This document shows, piece by piece, positions 16,842-41,434 of a stretch of 64,000 nt of DNA. This DNA comes from a phage. The DNA is taken from sequence record PZ445521.1; one strand, given 5' to 3'. How positions within the stretch are numbered: the stretch's first letter is position 1; every line of letters starts with the position of its first letter. Made by a program: the position numbers and the translations under genes. Below the pieces are notes generated by a model, which saw nothing but the letters and a program-made list of their open reading frames with translations, did not search any database and was not told where the DNA came from.

Positions 16842-17744
16842 TTAAGATTTAAGTAAATCAACAATTTTAATTAACTTTTCACGCTCAGATTTAGCTTTAC
16901 TACTCAATCCAGATAGTCTGAATATTTCATCATCATATTGTTGAATAGAAATATTTAGCTCTTCTATTTGTTTACTGAAATAATCAATCTGCTCGGAATA
17001 TTTTTCATTACTGCGAACTGGTACAGGTTTTGTAGGAAATTTAGTTAAACTGGATTCATCCGGGCGATAAATTAAAATGCAATTTGAACCAATCGGGCAT
17101 TTAGCACCAGATGAATATTCTAACGTTCCAGCTTCTTTTAAAACTTCAAAAGCTAAACAGAGATGATGCCCCATATTAACATAATCTGTAGAGCGAGCTC
17201 TGACGTAATAATCATCGCCGCGAATACTAAATTTAAAGCATTTAAGGTCTTCTGTATTATTGGTCTTAAAAATCATTTGTTTATCTAGACCTTTAGCTAA
17301 TCGAGCGCCTAATGCTAATAATCGTCGTTGATTTTCCCACAAATCCGTAATCATTTGATCGAATGATAATTTAGGCATTAGTCGACCATAAAGGTCATAT
17401 CCTTTATTATAATTGCGAAGGATTTCACTCGCATTAATACGAGACAACGCTCCAATTTTATTAAGGGCTTTCATGATGCGATTAGATAAACCCATTCCAG
17501 ACCCATTTGTTCGTTGTAAATGTTTTTCTAATCCAAATCCAATATCAACTTTAAATTTATCTAAAATTTCAGCATGAACATCTCTGTCAATAACATTCAA
17601 ATCCAAAGTTGGGTTAAATCTATGAAAAAATTTATCTGGCTCTCCACGACGAAGTACAGTCCATTCATTTAATTTTTTATTAACTAAAGATTTAATTACT
17701 GCATTGACATTATTAATTACTACTGACATATTTTTCTCACTCAA
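16842..17744 (-). CDS. hypothetical protein, divergent paralog family member 4 (C-terminal coiled coil)
   Basis: 300 aa; WENQRRLLALGARLAKGL block and C-terminal coiled-coil tail. Confidence 0.55.
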   Translation of the reverse strand: MSEKNMSVVINNVNAVIKSLVNKKLNEWTVLRRGEPDKFFHRFNPTLDLNVIDRDVHAEILDKFKVDIGFGLEKHLQRTNGSGMGLSNRIMKALNKIGALSRINASEILRNYNKGYDLYGRLMPKLSFDQMITDLWENQRRLLALGARLAKGLDKQMIFKTNNTEDLKCFKFSIRGDDYYVRARSTDYVNMGHHLCLAFEVLKEAGTLEYSSGAKCPIGSNCILIYRPDESSLTKFPTKPVPVRSNEKYSEQIDYFSKQIEELNISIQQYDDEIFRLSGLSSKAKSEREKLIKIVDLLKS

Positions 17745-20537: not shown

Positions 20538-21551
20538 TCATTTATAATAACTTCGGTGGTTTTCAAGATAGACCTTCTCAAGGAAGTCATCCCAGAAACT
20601 CATGTCTACTGTTTTAGGCATACCGTTCTTAGAAGCTTCAGTAGATGCTGCTTCTACTTGATCGACCACATCTTCCAAAAACTCTTGAACTGTTTTAAAT
20701 GGATGTTTACCCAACTTCACGTCGAGAATAAATGGAGCATCTTGAAGTGGATAGACTAAGTCACCAGTTTTGTAAATTTCCAATAGTTGAAGTCCACCAC
20801 GACAAGCATGGCTCAGAGCTTTCCAGTCAATGCCTTCATTGGCTTCGGCCTTACGAGCGCGTTCACCATATTCAGCATCTAATTTGTTCAGTGACTGCTT
20901 AAGCTCAATAAGAGAAAGAGTTGTCTGATATTTACGACCCAACACTGTGTAAAACGTCTGTGGGCCTGTTTTCTCATGATTATGGAACACCCATTCACAG
21001 AATTCGTTTTCTGGAAGACGATGCTTAATATCTTCAACTTTAGTACGACGCTGCTTAATGGAACCGTCTTCTTGGTAATCAACCCATTGCTCAGGGATTT
21101 GATTAACTACTTTCAATACATCACGTAATGCAGCCAAACGAGAACCCTTGACACCGTATTTAGAAGCTTGCTTGCGAACATATCCTAAATAGGATTTCAT
21201 GTTAGTCGTATAAAAACGAGAACGGTTGTCTTGAATAAACTTCCACACATCAGGCAAATCAGATTTAACCACTAGTTCAGGTGGAGTATGAAGCATATCT
21301 AATGCTACAGTTTCACCATCTGCAGCTAATTTAAAGAAATATTTAAGACTGTATAGTTCATGGTCAATATCATCTTTAGTGTTTTTAGATGATGTGTTGT
21401 TGGTGTTTTTACTCATGTGCTCTTTGACATTTCCGATAAGAATATCGCGAGCAGGAGGAACAAAAATTTCTTTAAAATCTACATCAGATTCTGGGGTAGA
21501 AGTTCCATAAAGATGACTACCAAAATAGCTTTTCATTACTGTTTTCATCAT
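20538..21551 (-). CDS. predicted nucleotidyltransferase (pol-beta superfamily fold)
   Basis: 337 aa; N-terminal GSHLYG...SDVD motif (GS-x9-DxD) plus downstream acidic ETVALD. Confidence 0.55.
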   Translation of the reverse strand: MMKTVMKSYFGSHLYGTSTPESDVDFKEIFVPPARDILIGNVKEHMSKNTNNTSSKNTKDDIDHELYSLKYFFKLAADGETVALDMLHTPPELVVKSDLPDVWKFIQDNRSRFYTTNMKSYLGYVRKQASKYGVKGSRLAALRDVLKVVNQIPEQWVDYQEDGSIKQRRTKVEDIKHRLPENEFCEWVFHNHEKTGPQTFYTVLGRKYQTTLSLIELKQSLNKLDAEYGERARKAEANEGIDWKALSHACRGGLQLLEIYKTGDLVYPLQDAPFILDVKLGKHPFKTVQEFLEDVVDQVEAASTEASKNGMPKTVDMSFWDDFLEKVYLENHRSYYK

Positions 21552-22011: not shown

Positions 22012-22533
22012 TTATCCTTTCATTGAAGGAGTAATGGTTGTTAAATACTTAATCATAGCTTCAGCTTCTGATTTTGATAATGAAATTTCTCCATTGTTTT
22101 GACGAATAGAAATAAAATCCGGATGACGGTCACCACCAGCTTTTAAAACACACATATAAGTATCAACTTCACCTTCAATATTTGAAATGATTGAAGCAGT
22201 TCCGCATGAATGTGGTTTTTGATAAATCAATGCAGCTTTTCTTCCACCATTTGACTGTTCATAGGCTTTTAATACATCAAACAAATCAGTTCTTTTATCA
22301 ATAGCTAAAATGTTATTTTCATCTTCAATGTTAAATCCTTCGGATACTTCATAAAGCGTTACCCATAAATCACCGATGTCAATAACAGCATTTACTTTTC
22401 CACGGCTTTCAAGAGTATGACAAATTTTCTTGATTTCGTCATAACTCATTTTAATAATATCATCTCCTTGACTAAGGAAGATGTCATTTTTAAATTCAAC
22501 ACGAATTAAACCACTTTCACTTGAAATAAACAT
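22012..22533 (-). CDS. hypothetical protein (paralog of 22540..23085)
   Basis: 173 aa; shares GFNIE and C-terminal A..YL..I/T.P(S/T)M blocks with neighbour. Confidence 0.55.
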   Translation of the reverse strand: MFISSESGLIRVEFKNDIFLSQGDDIIKMSYDEIKKICHTLESRGKVNAVIDIGDLWVTLYEVSEGFNIEDENNILAIDKRTDLFDVLKAYEQSNGGRKAALIYQKPHSCGTASIISNIEGEVDTYMCVLKAGGDRHPDFISIRQNNGEISLSKSEAEAMIKYLTTITPSMKG

Positions 22534-22539
22534 ATTTCC

Positions 22540-23085
22540 TCACTTTGAAATCATAGTTGGAATAACAGAATCAAGATAAGTCTTTAGTGCAATAGCTTCG
22601 TCTTTGGTAAATGTGACAATATGTGCTCGAAAATCATCAATTTGACGAATAGTTAAGACATCTCCATCTTCATAACATTTTGATACGTTTAAAACAGTTT
22701 CATCATTCTGATTGCAAGCGTTAGTAATAATAGCATTGCAATTTTTAAACCATTTTAAACTATGTTTTCTTTCATTAGAATAATAAAAATATTTAATCTT
22801 ATCTATAAAACTATCCCAATGGATAACTGATAAGCATATTGACTCGCTTTCAATATTAAATCCTGGGCATGAAGAATAAAAATGAATTTTATGCTCATCA
22901 TTAATGCTTACAATTTTATCAGTATAAGGATTTTCAATTTTGGTTAAATGAATGATTTCACTAGGCGTAAAATACAGCATATCGTCTTCTTGTGTCAAAC
23001 GATACATATTATTTACTTTTTCTATAGCCAATTCACCAAAAAGTGAACTAACTTCTAATACTAATCGTTTCGCCGCTACCGTCAT
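22540..23085 (-). CDS. hypothetical protein (paralog of 22012..22533)
   Basis: 181-aa ORF. Confidence 0.55.
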   Translation of the reverse strand: MTVAAKRLVLEVSSLFGELAIEKVNNMYRLTQEDDMLYFTPSEIIHLTKIENPYTDKIVSINDEHKIHFYSSCPGFNIESESICLSVIHWDSFIDKIKYFYYSNERKHSLKWFKNCNAIITNACNQNDETVLNVSKCYEDGDVLTIRQIDDFRAHIVTFTKDEAIALKTYLDSVIPTMISK

Positions 23086-23206
23086 TACATACTCCTCTGA
23101 ATCATATCAATAATGTTGTTCACCAGATTATAAGTAAACATTGGGTAATTATATTGAATCACCACATACACAACAAACAAAACTTTCATTCTCTTCTCCT
23201 TGGCAG

Positions 23207-30438: not shown

Positions 30439-30578
30439 TTCTTCTCTCTAAGTTTGGGCCATTCCATGGCGCATGAATTGTCCATTTCTGTATTTACCCA
30501 TTACCGCGCTTGGGCTCGACCTTATTACAGGTTGGCGGGAATCCCTCATAGAATCATGAGGTCCAGGTTGTTCCCATG

Positions 30579-31052
30579 TTATTTGAACGATTTAACGTAC
30601 TGAATAGAACCTTTACTATTCACAAAGGCAATTTTACCATTTTTGTTATACATGGTAGCAGTACGTTGATAGCCATAAGTTTGTTTACCAGATTGATAAC
30701 CAACTAATGCAAAATTATCTTCGCCCATTTTATTCTGTTTAGCGCGGATGCGTTCATGACCATGTGCCATAAGAACCTTAGCATCACCGGTTGCAATGGA
30801 TCGACGAGTTTTTTCATCTTCAACTGTATTAACAAAGTCGTCAAATGAATCAAATTTAGCATGAGATTTATTATACAGTTTTCCATCTACTGCATAATTA
30901 TATCCCTGTACATCCATCTCAACTTCTGTACCATCATCCAATACAGCAGTGATTTTTTGACCTTTTTTAAATTTCAAAAGATCAGTAAAAGATTCAGCAA
31001 TAATTTGAGAATTAATAGCTGCTTCAGTGATAAATTCTTGATATGTTTTCAT
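30579..31052 (-). CDS. internal (head-packaged) protein candidate with capsid targeting sequence
   Basis: 157 aa; N-terminus MKTYQEFITE; next to denV. Confidence 0.6.
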   Translation of the reverse strand: MKTYQEFITEAAINSQIIAESFTDLLKFKKGQKITAVLDDGTEVEMDVQGYNYAVDGKLYNKSHAKFDSFDDFVNTVEDEKTRRSIATGDAKVLMAHGHERIRAKQNKMGEDNFALVGYQSGKQTYGYQRTATMYNKNGKIAFVNSKGSIQYVKSFK

Positions 31053-31068
31053 ATGATTCCTTTAATTT

Positions 31069-31386
31069 TTATTCTTTAGGAAAATTTTTAGAATATGCGT
31101 CGTAAAGCTTATTTCCAATACGACGAAAAACTCTAGCTGCAAAACGATTTTCTGGGTTTTTAATCATAATTTGCATCATATAAGTACCCGCGTCTGAAAG
31201 AGCTTCTTCATAGTACCCGTTAATTTCTTTAAGAGTCCTACGTTTACCACCAGGACCATCAACAGTGATTTTCCATTTACCTGTAGAAGTGCGACTCGGC
31301 GGCTCAACTTGTTCAATCCAAATATAACCGCCTTCTACACGTTGTCCTGCAGCAGATTCTGCAATAAATTCTTGATATGTTTTCAT
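31069..31386 (-). CDS. internal (head-packaged) protein candidate with capsid targeting sequence
   Basis: 105 aa; N-terminus MKTYQEFIAE. Confidence 0.6.
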   Translation of the reverse strand: MKTYQEFIAESAAGQRVEGGYIWIEQVEPPSRTSTGKWKITVDGPGGKRRTLKEINGYYEEALSDAGTYMMQIMIKNPENRFAARVFRRIGNKLYDAYSKNFPKE

Positions 31387-31395
31387 ATGTTTCCT

Positions 31396-31812
31396 TTAAA
31401 TGTAAATATTTTTACCGTAATACTTATACCAATGTGGTTTCATTAAAATTTTTTCATCAAGTCGTTGTTGACTCAATTTAATAGCTGATTTGCATGGATT
31501 ATAATCATTTTTCCATTCTACTGGAATATCGCTGATGTCAGGAACTTCAGTATCTTTTATACTGAACCCTCGTTTTAAGCATTCCGTTATAATGTCTGAT
31601 TGACGCTTTCGCAAAAATTCTAACTTATCGTAAAAGAACGTGACATGACCAGAACCTAAAATAAACTCGGAAGATATTTTAAAATCTTTAACGCGCTTAC
31701 CGTTTGCCACATGCTTACGAACTATACCAAAAACACGTGGCAATTCACGGTATTCTGCGATTAAATGTTGATCAGCAAGTTCAGATACTAAAGTCAAATT
31801 AATACGAGTCAT
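31396..31812 (-). CDS. denV: Endonuclease V (pyrimidine dimer DNA glycosylase)
   Basis: 138 aa, N-terminal [12 protein letters not shown]; adjacent to lysozyme gene. Confidence 0.8.
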
Positions 31813-31872: not shown

Positions 31873-32840
<968 letters not shown>

Positions 32841-36040: not shown

Positions 36041-36064
36041 GATACCAAAAAGCCCCAACCTTTT
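36041..36064 (-). terminator. intrinsic terminator hairpin (copy 1 of near-identical pair)
   Basis: agccccaacc-tttt-ggtcggggct, 10-bp stem with one mismatch, U-run follows on minus transcript. Confidence 0.55.
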
Positions 36065-36081
36065 GGTCGGGGCTAAGAATG

Positions 36082-36555
36082 TTATTTGATTTGTTTAGCA
36101 GACCAAATGCGGTCTTTAATAATTTTTTGGATGTCTTCAACATACTCAAGAGAGTGAGCATGTGGGTTATCTTTGAAACTATAAGCACGAGCTAGCTTTT
36201 GGCCTTCAGTTTTGATTACTAAAAGCTCTTTAAGGATAGCTTCATATTTGGAGATAATTCCTTTAACAATATTTTTCTCTTGTGTAGCTTTAGGATCTGC
36301 TTTAGGAGCAGGTTTACCTGAAGCCTTTGCAAAAGCAGCTCCAGTAGCAACTAAACTTTTCCAGGCCATACTAACTGCATTTCCCGTAAATCCTTCCGCT
36401 TTCATGTCGCGTGCGAACTGGAATCGCGATTCATCAGAAGCATCTTTATAAGAATATTTACCCGCTGCAATGGCTGCTTTTGCGACAGCTTGAATTTCGG
36501 TGCTAGATGCTTCATTTAACACCGCTTCATTTAAAAATTGAGCATATGATTTCAT
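36082..36555 (-). CDS. internal (head-packaged) protein candidate with capsid targeting sequence
   Basis: 157 aa; N-terminus MKSYAQFLNE; Ala/Lys-rich; late-promoter motif upstream. Confidence 0.55.
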   Translation of the reverse strand: MKSYAQFLNEAVLNEASSTEIQAVAKAAIAAGKYSYKDASDESRFQFARDMKAEGFTGNAVSMAWKSLVATGAAFAKASGKPAPKADPKATQEKNIVKGIISKYEAILKELLVIKTEGQKLARAYSFKDNPHAHSLEYVEDIQKIIKDRIWSAKQIK

Positions 36556-36591
36556 CTTATTTCCTGTTTTAATTCGTGGTTTTAATATACT

Positions 36592-36599
36592 TATTTATA
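36592..36599 (-). promoter_or_regulatory. late promoter motif TATAAATA (minus strand)
   Basis: forward tatttata about 40 nt upstream of ORF 36082..36555 start. Confidence 0.45.
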
Positions 36600-36605
36600 C
36601 TAAAA

Positions 36606-36629
36606 AGCCCCAACCTTTCGGTCGGGGCT
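36606..36629 (-). terminator. intrinsic terminator hairpin (copy 2 of near-identical pair)
   Basis: agccccaacc-tttc-ggtcggggct followed by U-run on minus transcript. Confidence 0.55.
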
Positions 36630-36680
36630 AAGCCTTGCGGCAACCTTGTCGGGGTTCCACCTGCTAAGGCAAGTGTTTGT

Positions 36681-36772
36681 ACGAAACGCCGGGATTCGAA
36701 CCCGGTTATTAAGCAGTTGACGCTACTCAATATTTTTAAAAGGCCATATCTCGACCATATCCGAACGTTCCG
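36681..36772 (-). ncRNA. tRNA-like element (possible degenerate tRNA or small stable RNA)
   Basis: 7-bp acceptor-like pairing (cggaacg/cgtttcg) and canonical T-arm ccggg-TTCGAAT-cccgg, but about 44 nt between D-region and T-arm without a recognisable anticodon arm. Confidence 0.3.
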
Positions 36773-36940
36773 TCAAAAACGCTACTCGGCTTACGGCAAA
36801 GATATTTCCTCGAATCGATAATTCGGTGCGCCGTTTCTGCTGTGATATAAGGGGACATTAACAAAACATAAAGATTTATTAATGCCAGTCCTTAAACAGG
36901 GAACATCAGTCCGACGACTTACCGGTAGCGACCCGGTTTC

Positions 36941-37288
36941 TTATTCTGACATATAATAAAGTTGCTCACGTCGTCTACGCCATAAATTAATTGCTTCATG
37001 AGCACATTCAGCGTTCAGGATAGGACGACAATAATATAACGACTCACGTTTTTGGAACCGATGCTGCAATGGGATTTCATTTAAAAGGTCTTTACGATCA
37101 AAGTATTCGTAACCATCTAAACCTACTGAACGATTTTTAATAAACTTCCAATGGCCGAATTCATTCTGAATATAAATGTAATCAGCGTGTTGGTATAATG
37201 CCATAATCTCACGGTCAGAAATAGCTGTTTCATGTTCGTTAAAATAAAACGTTAAATCATGTACTACTAAGTAAACATTACCTTTCAT
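36941..37288 (-). CDS. hypothetical protein
   Basis: 115-aa ORF immediately downstream of tRNA cluster. Confidence 0.5.
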   Translation of the reverse strand: MKGNVYLVVHDLTFYFNEHETAISDREIMALYQHADYIYIQNEFGHWKFIKNRSVGLDGYEYFDRKDLLNEIPLQHRFQKRESLYYCRPILNAECAHEAINLWRRRREQLYYMSE

Positions 37289-37306
37289 ATTTTCCTCACT
37301 TATAAT

Positions 37307-39302: not shown

Positions 39303-39350
39303 GTTGATAGGGTAATAGTATCACTACCCTATCTAAAAGTAAACTCATTT
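39303..39350 (-). promoter_or_regulatory. T4-type early promoter-like element
   Basis: GTTGATAGGGTAATAGTATCACTACC block and GTTTAC hexamer (39339..39344). Confidence 0.45.
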
Positions 39351-39578
39351 TTTACGAAAAATTGATTTATTTTCTGCTGCCCATTTTTCAATAACTGCAA
39401 CCGGACCAGTAACAACAATTTTATCACCGTAATCTTCTGCGGCGAGTTGACCGAAATTATCTAATGCATCACGAAGAACTCCATGAGGCATTTCACCCAT
39501 TTTATCTTTCTTGCCAGTGTAAATAAACTCAACTTTTACATCAGAAGATTCAGCGATAAATTCTTGATACGTTTTCAT
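39345..39578 (-). CDS. small internal (head-packaged) protein candidate with capsid targeting sequence
   Basis: ORF 39345..39596; start at MKTYQEFIAE gives 77 aa. Confidence 0.55.
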   Translation of the reverse strand: MKTYQEFIAESSDVKVEFIYTGKKDKMGEMPHGVLRDALDNFGQLAAEDYGDKIVVTGPVAVIEKWAAENKSIFRKK

Positions 39579-39603
39579 TTTATTCTCCAATTTCACATTT
39601 GTT

Positions 39604-39660
39604 TTGATAGGGTAATAGTATCACTACTAAAACCCCGTGTAAACAACTTTGTGAAATTGT
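39604..39660 (-). promoter_or_regulatory. T4-type early promoter-like element
   Basis: GATAGGGTAATAGTATCACTAC block, GTTTAC hexamer (39639..39644), CACAAAGTTG upstream block. Confidence 0.45.
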
Positions 39661-39663
39661 TTA

Positions 39664-39951
39664 TTACAAAAGATTTTTAGCAATAATCTTGAGATGTGCT
39701 GCAGAAATGTGTTTAGCTTTAAACAACGCAGTTTCTTCGGCAGGAGAGATAACGATTGTAGCACCATCCTTTTTAGCAGACCACCCATCACCTAGGTAAA
39801 CAGTACCTTTGATTTCTTCGCCATCAACCAGACTAATCATTGGTTTACCTTCTCGTCCTTTATTTGCTTTAATAACTTCAGAAGTAAGAGTAGCTTCGGT
39901 AATGGTAGAAACCGGGGTAGTTGTAGAAGTAAATTCTTTAAATGTTTTCAT
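39664..39951 (-). CDS. ipI: Internal protein I-position protein (capsid targeting sequence)
   Basis: 95 aa (T4 IPI length); N-terminus MKTFKEFTS; adjacent to 57B as ipI is in T4; identity by position and size. Confidence 0.5.
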   Translation of the reverse strand: MKTFKEFTSTTTPVSTITEATLTSEVIKANKGREGKPMISLVDGEEIKGTVYLGDGWSAKKDGATIVISPAEETALFKAKHISAAHLKIIAKNLL

Positions 39952-39972: not shown

Positions 39973-40020
39973 GATGAGATAATAGTATCACTACCTCATC
40001 AGCATGTAAACAACTTTGTG
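39973..40020 (-). promoter_or_regulatory. T4-type early promoter-like element
   Basis: GATGAGATAATAGTATCACTACC block and GTTTAC hexamer (40006..40011). Confidence 0.45.
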
Positions 40021-40721: not shown

Positions 40722-41434
40722 TATAGTACCTTTAGTGTATTTTTAATTTTAGAAAAAAGTTCTTCAAGAGAACCATCGTTTGTAATTACTAAATCGCCAT
40801 CACGAATTGGCAATCCAGCTTCTGTAATATGAGTATCATTGGATTTTTGACCAGGACGAACTACATGAATTACTGTAGCACCCATCGCCCTAGCCGCATC
40901 CATTTCATGATCTTGACGAGTATCAGGAACGATATAATAATCATAACCTGAGTTAAATTTATCAAGATAATCTAAAGCAAATAATTTTACCCAATACATG
41001 CGGTCGAAGTTATTAACAATCAAATCCGTACCTAGGGCTTGCATCAGACGACGGACTGACCATTGATCTTCAATATTATTTATAACGTCAGCAATCTTGT
41101 TAAATGCTACGAAATTAACTGCGTCATCAAAAACAAACACACCTTTAATTGGGCTTTTACTATTAAGATAGCAAAATGCTTGTTCCATAATCGTGATTAC
41201 TTCTGATTTAGTCAGATTTAAATTAGTCTCACGATCATAGTCAATTCCTTCAAACTCTTTACGAGTTAAGCAAGGATAGTCAGTGTTTGCTGCAAATACA
41301 CCCCATGCATAAGCCAATGCATCCTTAATAGGACCAGCAAGTTGATATTTAACTGCAGAATAATTATTCATAATAAAATCTGCAGTAGTATCTTTTCCAC
41401 TACGCTTTACACCACTTAAAAAGATTAGTTTCAT
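40721..41434 (-). CDS. 1: Deoxynucleoside monophosphate kinase gp1
   Basis: 237 aa; P-loop GVKRSGKDT; position adjacent to gene 3. Confidence 0.85.

Follow-up and report, generated by a model that had tools for sequence, protein, structure and literature searches.

What do five small genes of a T4-like phage have in common if their products agree only at the N terminus? The question is raised by a 64,000-nt stretch of phage DNA (sequence record PZ445521.1; the whole stretch is called the window below), in which five open reading frames (ORFs) open with the same short leader. A first reading, made from the sequence alone and referred to here as the sequence-only reading, took this leader for a capsid-targeting sequence (CTS) and the proteins for T-even internal proteins (Ips), which are packaged into the phage head and injected with the DNA. 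Our analysis indicates that the five ORFs are very probably precursors of such Ips. The idea is correct but largely textbook, since four of the five genes already bear Ip names. What is new is a well-delimited, unannotated candidate Ip family, represented here by a gene that we call orf157, together with the exact breakpoints of a cassette that holds two of the other genes, Ip10 and Ip4. The analysis covers sequence features, homology, synteny and breakpoints; the function of the CTS, the specificity of the protease gp21, and the activities of IPI, Ip2, Ip3 and Bas37_0260 are taken from the literature. The 3-kb stretch around the finding is a 100% match to Shigella phage JK38 (MK962755.1, Tequatrovirus), and many other T-even-like phages match it at 97-98% identity. 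JK38 record coordinates become window coordinates when 31626 is subtracted, and all genes under discussion lie on the minus strand.

T-even Ips are highly diverse defence proteins whose sole common part is the CTS (PMC3012670). Their number, at least 10 (PMC12373910), is well above the three of T4, and more than 30 variants are cited for two highly variable loci (Comeau et al. 2007, as cited in PMC2839356). For incorporation into the head, the first ten residues of IPIII are enough (Black-laboratory work, summarised in PMC9026906). Targeting depends mainly on residue 4, which is aromatic, and residue 7, a Phe (Mullaney & Black 1996, summarised in PMC9026906), whereas the processing of IPIII is governed by residues 8 and 10, and the prohead protease gp21 cleaves after the Glu of an L/I-x-E site (both PMC9026906).

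Does the window hold such leaders, and how many? When all ATG, GTG and TTG starts are scanned in six frames, MK[TS][YF]xxF is found at exactly five of them, namely the five ORFs to which the sequence-only reading had pointed; about 0.07 motif starts would be expected by chance. Across the whole JK38 genome the motif opens 6 of 4049 candidate starts, where amino-acid composition would lead one to expect 0.17, and the sixth belongs to the homologue of gene 61.1, outside the window. Position 4 is aromatic and position 7 is Phe in all five ORFs (Y4 and F7 in Ip4, Ip10, orf157 and Ip6; F4 and F7 in IpI). That an I/L-x-E site follows the leader is likewise true of all five: the site occupies residues 8-10 in four ORFs and, as ITE, residues 17-19 in IpI. 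Ip4 and orf157 each have a second site, IAE at residues 18-20 and LNE at residues 13-15, respectively. Past residue 20, no similarity is detectable among the five proteins, nor between them and T4 IPII or IPIII. The coordinates of the genes and associated features are collected in Table 1.

Table 1. Internal-protein genes and associated features, in window coordinates; a slash within a leader marks a predicted gp21 cut.
Feature	Position	Strand	Remark
Ip4 precursor, 157 aa, leader MKTYQEFITE/AAINSQIIAE/S	30579..31052	-	JK38 record note 'Ip4'
Ip10 precursor, 105 aa, leader MKTYQEFIAE/S	31069..31386	-	Record note 'Ip10'; phrog_3966
Ip10+Ip4 cassette pair, 807 bp	30588..31394	-	Absent from Bas37/KarlGJung
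Conserved Ip leader, 58 nt (Shine-Dalgarno region and CTS codons)	31357..31414	-	98% identical to T4 ipII leader (blastn)
Two TATAAATA cores	32380..32400	-	Upstream of lysozyme gene e
Terminator hairpin, downstream copy, one substitution	36047..36074	-	Right cassette boundary
orf157 (JK38_00132), 157 aa, leader MKSYAQFLNE/AVLNE/A	36082..36555	-	Candidate new internal-protein family
Late promoter core TATAAATA (T4-type)	36592..36599	-	Ends 36 nt upstream of the orf157 ATG
Terminator hairpin, upstream copy AGCCCCGACCGAAAGGTTGGGGCTTTTT, 28 nt	36602..36629	-	Left cassette boundary; terminator after the rnaC homologue by T4 homology
Ip6 precursor, 77 aa, leader MKTYQEFIAE/S	39345..39578	-	JK38 record note 'Ip6'
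Early-type promoter-like site TTTACA-17-TACTAT with TG	39615..39643	-	In front of Ip6; duplicates the IpI site
IpI precursor, 95 aa	39664..39951	-	100% identical to T4 IPI
Early-type promoter-like site	39982..40010	-	In front of IpI

Some near matches to the motif were set aside. Two MKSY starts within 20538-21536 have neither Phe7 nor a following L/I-x-E and are not CTS proteins; the region is occupied on the minus strand by a 332-aa ORF that opens MKSYFGSHLYG..., of which only the first four residues agree with the CTS motif. Relaxing the motif adds a single start, internal to DNA ligase and spurious.

The T-even signature that the sequence-only reading had recognised is borne out by family membership for four of the five ORFs, which fall into the named families IPI, Ip4, Ip10 and Ip6. 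Like T4 IPI, IPII and IPIII, the Ips in the window are small, have the L/I-x-E motif and, orf157 apart, occupy the ipI and e/denV slots, and the first ten residues of IPII and IPIII, MKTYQEFIAE, are identical in Ip10 and Ip6. One of the genes, at 39664-39951, is IPI itself, whereas Ip4, Ip10, Ip6 and orf157 have no detectable sequence in common with the T4 set past residue 20; IPII and IPIII are absent from the window phage. Ip4, Ip10 and Ip6 belong by name and sequence cluster to the polymorphic T-even Ips (Ip4-Ip12 and others), which likewise come and go as cassettes flanked by promoter or stem-loop elements.

IpI and Ip6 lie together at the ipI slot. Residues 20-95 of IpI align with positions 1-76 of the 76-position Pfam profile PF11634 (IPI_T4, E 7.3e-54); the 19-residue propeptide closes at ITE/A, which leaves a mature IPI* of 76 residues. 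As in T4, the gene is flanked by 57B and the trna.4 homologue, and the DNA upstream of it is nearly identical to that of T4 ipI. A block, tagtgatactatta, is common to the upstream DNA of IpI and Ip6. For Ip6 itself, a mechanical ORF list gives a GTG start at 39596, and it is the annotated ATG at 39578 that yields MKTYQEF; the predicted mature protein has 67 residues and a near-neutral isoelectric point (pI) of 6.5, the other four predicted mature forms being basic. Ip6 matches phrog_8111 (2.4e-51), is named ip6 in phages VR7 and JK08, and has family members in 246 phage records, T6 among them.

A function for Ip6 is suggested by phage Bas37. This phage, KarlGJung (MZ501089), encodes at its ipI slot the CTS protein Bas37_0260, which was described in the HIDEN-SEQ preprint and whose deletion leaves Bas37 sensitive to McrBC (10.1101/2025.11.20.689424). 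Ip6 and Bas37_0260 have equal length, are identical at 74 of 77 residues (96%; the substitutions are S11T, S12A and V60A) and are encoded at matching sites downstream of the ipI slot, although Ip6 follows a genuine IPI in JK38 whereas Bas37_0260 follows a different, 85-aa Ip. Judged by sequence and position, the two proteins are orthologs, and McrBC is a likely target of Ip6.

The JK38 record also lists an Arn-like 'inhibitor of McrBC' and a beta-glucosyl-HMC-alpha-glucosyltransferase (record positions 159784-160062 and 22350-23192 for the pair, outside the window). The latter we take to be a DNA modification enzyme of the T2/T6 type. JK38 may thus have two independent anti-McrBC functions, Ip6 and the Arn-like protein.

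Ip10 and Ip4 are adjacent to one another at the e/denV slot. Ip4 matches Pfam DUF7412 (5.7e-96) and phrog_3155, 'internal virion protein' (6e-102); the T2 protein is 100% identical to it, RB51 and ime09 carry it under the name Ip4, and its family is spread over 471 phage records, in which the members from Klebsiella, Salmonella and Serratia phages show 61-71% identity. Both E10 and E20 are invariant in 14 homologues, and the predicted mature protein is about 15.5-16.5 kDa with a pI of about 9.2. The Ip10 family is found in 190 records, with RB69 and Enterobacter phages at about 52% identity; the protein is named ip10 in PP01 and VR25, it shares a 90% cluster with 'Ip10 [Enterobacteria phage Pol]' (CAA84455), and its predicted mature form has 95 residues and a pI of 9.6. 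The Ip10 of phage Pol is said to come from the original 1994 Ip survey, and Ips beyond those of T4 have reportedly been known since Repoila et al. described the polymorphic Ip genes of T-even phages in that year.

The place of the pair can be compared with gene orders in related phages. The sequence-only reading had stated, rightly, that T4 carries its pair between e and denV (e-ipIII-ipII-denV-vs.8), and that the pair in the window lies beyond denV (e-denV-Ip10-Ip4-vs.8 in JK38). Bas37 has e-denV-vs.8 with no Ip at the slot, and T2 has e-Ip4 with no denV, so that T4, T2, JK38 and Bas37 show four arrangements. Against Bas37, blastn places the JK38 breakpoints at 31395/30587, and both junctions, catttaaA/GGAAACAT... 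and ...TTCAAA/TAACATGGGA, are clean; the segment specific to JK38 nearly coincides with the interval named in the sequence-only reading. The first 19 nt of the conserved 58-nt leader (31396-31414) are at the same time the last six codons of denV plus its stop. The DenV protein ends ..KNIYI* in JK38 and ..KAIYA* in T4; because its C terminus is encoded by DNA homologous to the untranslated leader of T4 ipII, this end is a by-product of the cassette junction. The Bas37 denV keeps the leader-derived end though no Ip follows, which suggests that the pair was lost there by deletion. The block TTAAAGGAA(A/T)CATATGAAAACATATCAAGAATTTAT is present upstream of Ip4, T4 ipII and T4 ipIII as well as Ip10, and about 36 nt, made up of the Shine-Dalgarno region and the first 23 coding nucleotides, are common to the four genes; this block would provide the homology for unequal exchange.

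Two further observations concern the neighbours of this slot. Over 294 nt the remainder of denV shows only about 78% identity to T4, and its 3' third cannot be aligned. On the other side, the roughly 140 nt between Ip4 and the vs.8 homologue (30440-30578) appear GC-rich for such an AT-rich genome and are conserved in T4 and Bas37. In T4 they are annotated as the N-terminal 40 codons of vs.8, which has 219 aa there and 179 aa here. A search of Rfam found the tRNAs only, with no hit to this segment. The segment may be translated in one phage but not in another, or it may be a structured element.

The fifth ORF, orf157, is where the analysis departs from what annotation already holds. The sequence-only reading had counted it among the Ips: its leader and L-x-E sites stand, and membership in a named family does not, as orf157 shares nothing with any Ip past the leader. 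We therefore treat it as a candidate new family. It corresponds to phrog_2280, 'unknown function', and matches no Pfam or NCBIfam family. Its own family occurs in 512 phage records; among the 40 records listed, all 38 that are annotated have uninformative names (two Yersinia phages have 'Phage protein', the others hypothetical), and in a 216-member cluster, of which 40 members were read and 20 had names, the 15 names listed are all hypothetical, uncharacterized or 'Phage protein'. An exhaustive profile search against 1.8 billion representatives retrieved only 13 clusters. In six of seven newly retrieved homologues (24-49% identity where full-length), the protein opens with aromatic4-x-x-F7-(L/V)8-x-E10 or a close variant; the seventh is called from a start further upstream and has this motif behind an internal Met. 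In contrast to the leader, the C-terminal half varies between subgroups of the family. The predicted mature protein is about 15.5-16 kDa, with a pI of 9.5 and a net charge of +7 to +8, and thus basic, as are IPII and IPIII. An AF2 model has two helical domains, and the leader lies outside them and is of low confidence. On this evidence orf157 is probably, though by no means certainly, packaged in the head.

The location of orf157 is also distinctive. It lies between the homologues of e.8 and rnaC, outside the two described Ip loci, which are the usual rather than the strictly defining place of Ips, and thus in a third slot, where it would have its own late promoter. The cassette consists, in order, of a hairpin, TATAAATA, the ORF and a second copy of the hairpin, whereas in T4 and Bas41 the ORF is missing and a lone hairpin comes directly after rnaC. 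From blastn breakpoints against these two phages, the inserted unit measures 555 bp and has a direct repeat of about 35 nt at its ends. The placement of TATAAATA is kept in relatives: it is found at -46 in Bas37 and at -44 in the homologue from a Klebsiella phage, which also has the same terminator tail, and at -38 in Yersinia phage fHe-Yen9-01, where it precedes two adjacent leader-bearing ORFs. Conservation of the orf157 family together with its leader extends over Tequatrovirus, Klebsiella-phage and Yersinia-phage lineages. In IMG/VR, a scan for the junction of hairpin and late promoter returned only two copies of the same gene.

The slot also hosts a second family. In Bas37 the orf157 unit is followed by bas37_0243, a leader-bearing ORF of 187 aa (MKTYAEFLTEAA...; 9029-9592 of L007, from Bas37 MZ501089, minus strand), whose family is found in 165 records, all annotated ones listed being hypothetical. 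Like orf157, it is outside the two variable loci of the polymorphic T-even Ips. Is 36047-36629, then, a third internal-protein locus of T4-like phages that had gone unrecognised? We regard this as a tentative possibility, a shade less probable than its opposite. The same guarded standing, close to even but below it, applies to the fuller proposal that the locus is a late-promoter-driven, hairpin-bounded module with one or two unrelated leader-bearing proteins that vary by phage. In the annotations examined orf157 is not named Ip; an earlier mention of a third locus in the 1994 or 2007 Ip surveys is possible.

The closest precedent for the arrangement is provided by the PeSL cassettes of RB49 and phi1 (Arbiol et al. 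2010, PMC2839356), in which a small ORF likewise lies between repeated stem-loop terminators beside a promoter; like them, the orf157 cassette is present or absent between close relatives, with breakpoints in the repeats. The two differ in that the PeSL promoter is early and sigma-70-like, whereas that of the orf157 cassette is of the T4 late type, and in that the hairpin here, unlike that of PeSL, is the terminator downstream of the rnaC homologue, where breakpoints point to recombination.

Several observations touch on this slot and its contents. With hits at 1 of 48 TA sites, bas37_0243 has the score 'Essential' in the supplement of the HIDEN-SEQ paper, which is silent on the matter, and T4 and JK38 do without the gene; the score could be real, or it could be an artefact such as a segment missing from the library stock. 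In fHe-Yen9-01 (KY593455), a 52-aa ORF at 2700-2858 on the plus strand, upstream of the two third-locus ORFs, opens MKTYIEFINEIIVK..., which is CTS-like, and other T4-like genera probably hold further leader-bearing genes that annotation has missed. Next to the cassette, 36597-36945 (minus strand) is 93% identical to the stable 'species 1 and 2' RNAs of T4, rnaD and rnaC, and holds TTCGAATCC, a T-loop-like motif. A search of Rfam with the rnaC and rnaD homologues returned no family at E <= 0.01, and these RNAs seem to be without a covariance model. Beyond them, between tRNA-Arg and the rnaD homologue, 36946-37305 is a 360-bp insertion relative to Bas41; it carries JK38_00133 (ORF 36941-37288, minus strand), a protein of 115 aa with no CTS.

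If the five proteins are Ips, their life cycle can be outlined from what is known of T4. The N-terminal CTS, with its aromatic residue 4 and Phe 7, would dock each precursor on the scaffolding core during prohead assembly. gp21 would then cut past the Glu of L/I-x-E, as predicted after residue 10, with further possible cuts after residue 20 in Ip4 and residue 15 in orf157, and after residue 19 in IpI; JK38 has annotated genes for gp21 and for the core proteins that receive the CTS, gp22, gp67 and gp68, at 99904-102046 of its record, outside the window. The small mature proteins would remain in the head with the DNA and be injected at infection, and inside the cell, ahead of all phage gene expression, they would neutralise the modification-dependent (type IV) restriction enzymes already present. 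We infer packaging, processing and injection for these five proteins and, for Ip4, Ip10 and orf157, an anti-defence role. Delivery of pre-made protein is a strategy shared with phage P1, whose Dar proteins (DarA, DarB and Hdf) are packaged in the head and injected to counter restriction; these are unrelated to the T-even Ips, take another packaging route and act on type I rather than type IV systems. The five genes would sit as exchangeable cassettes in three variable slots: the ipI slot (IpI and Ip6), the e/denV slot (Ip10 and Ip4) and the rnaC terminator (orf157). Homology for recombination at the cassette ends would come from 36-58 nt of leader and CTS codons in the first two slots and from the duplicated 28-nt hairpin in the third.

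That Ips act on restriction is supported by all four whose function is known (Ip1, Ip2, Ip3 and Bas37_0260), each a restriction inhibitor. T4 Ip1, Ip2 and Ip3 each inhibit a different GmrSD (Silas et al. 2025, PMC12373910), and T4 IPI is the inhibitor of the GmrSD of strain CT596.

A number of points weigh against the reading of the five ORFs as packaged anti-defence proteins. Some concern the leader and expression. Gene 61.1 of T4 (NC_000866 18966-19130) opens MKTFKEFIKED, a CTS-like leader with an I-K-E site, and its JK38 counterpart (record 17305-17469, minus strand; 54 aa) opens MKTYKEFIKED. The gene belongs to the early primase cluster, and its product has a Lys/Glu-rich, low-complexity tail after the leader. 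We know of no report of gp61.1 as an internal protein. It may be a fourth leader-bearing protein of T4, or the motif may not be fully specific; to go by its sequence, the T4 protein indicates the latter, and a leader alone is no proof of packaging. The TATAAATA octamer occurs at chance level in the AT-rich window (12 found, 10.7 expected), so that it is position and conservation that must carry the promoter argument. No late-promoter core lies within 80 nt of Ip4, Ip10, Ip6 or IpI, near which only early-type promoter-like sites are found, and their late expression is thus a deduction. Late synthesis would need read-through from the late promoters at 32380-32400 and 41077-41084. The cores at 32380-32400 would be the nearest possible source of late transcripts running via e and denV into Ip10 and Ip4, and between 32400 and 30579 no terminator-like site was found on the minus strand.

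Other points concern function. Literature searches turned up neither virion proteomics nor N-terminal sequences nor injection assays for JK38-type phages or the orf157 family. Sequence searches of Pfam, NCBIfam and the PDB with Ip4, Ip10, orf157 and Ip6 gave DUF7412 only or nothing, and structure searches with models of Ip4 and orf157 gave no match to a known fold and no functional lead. When ip4-10 were assayed against eight GmrSD systems, no reproducible inhibition was seen (Silas et al. 2025, PMC12373910); the proposal of the sequence-only reading that the extra members are anti-defence effectors is upheld for one of them, Ip6, through Bas37_0260. In Klebsiella, Salmonella and Serratia phages, at 65-70% identity, 64 columns of Ip4 never vary, and its T2 and JK38 copies are identical, a degree of conservation that fits a fast arms race less well. 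Finally, the orf157 ortholog is dispensable in Bas37 on laboratory hosts, as expected for an accessory gene.

Which other explanations could account for the same observations? The most general is that the shared N terminus reflects chance or composition and that the ORFs are unrelated, ordinary genes. The motif is indeed short and the genome AT-rich, but the excess of motif starts over expectation, in the window and genome-wide, the match of four of the five ORFs to curated or named internal-protein families, and the conservation of the leader with T4 ipII and ipIII in the DNA as well refute this reading, which we consider to have next to no chance of being right. It is considerably more plausible, though still unlikely, that orf157 in particular is a late protein that is never packaged, having gained its CTS-like N terminus from an ip gene by recombination or by convergence, and that it acts in the cell late in infection. 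Against this, the leader is kept in homologues from other genera at 24-49% identity while the C-terminal half is replaced, and one or two L-x-E sites always come after it. The basic charge shared with IPII and IPIII also argues for a head protein, as do the same kind of leader in the neighbouring cassette of Bas37 and fHe-Yen9-01 and the late promoter, which is what a head component would need. What speaks for an unpackaged orf157 is the lack of an Ip annotation in the records and cluster names listed, the position outside the described loci, leader DNA that differs from the conserved ip leader block, the non-essential ortholog in Bas37 and the precedent of T4 61.1, with a CTS-like N terminus on a protein not known from the head.

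A further alternative accepts packaging and assigns some of the proteins, especially Ip4, mainly to the virion, where they would serve DNA charge and condensation or core and head morphogenesis, the latter having been suggested for IPIII in a review (PMC9026906). The conservation of Ip4 over four host genera, the pI of 9.1-9.6 predicted for mature Ip4, Ip10 and orf157, and the negative GmrSD assays are in keeping with such a role. However, Bas37 lacks Ip4 and Ip10, and T4 lacks these two as well as Ip6 and orf157; with presence and absence among such close relatives, none of them can be needed for head assembly, and the Ips of known activity are without exception restriction inhibitors. A mainly structural role is thus rather improbable, more so than an unpackaged orf157, and in any case structural and anti-defence roles are not mutually exclusive. 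The reading that we prefer remains that all five ORFs encode precursors of Ips.

What does this mean for T4-like phages? Ips are the first phage products that host defences meet, and each of the four whose activity is known blocks one enzyme, of the type IV restriction class. Because they act on single enzymes, knowing the full Ip repertoire of a phage helps to predict its host range, which matters for therapeutic Tequatroviruses. For the four named genes in the window, the gain is their names and, for Ip6, a likely target, McrBC; the clean breakpoints of the Ip10-Ip4 pair illustrate how ip genes are swapped. The orf157 family, present in about 500 sequenced phages, has been outside both the recent ip4-10 screens and the annotation pipelines. 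If its members are packaged and injected, the third locus would be a source of new 'first-response' effectors, and CTS proteins in T-even genomes, possibly including gp61.1 of T4 itself, would have been systematically undercounted by annotation.

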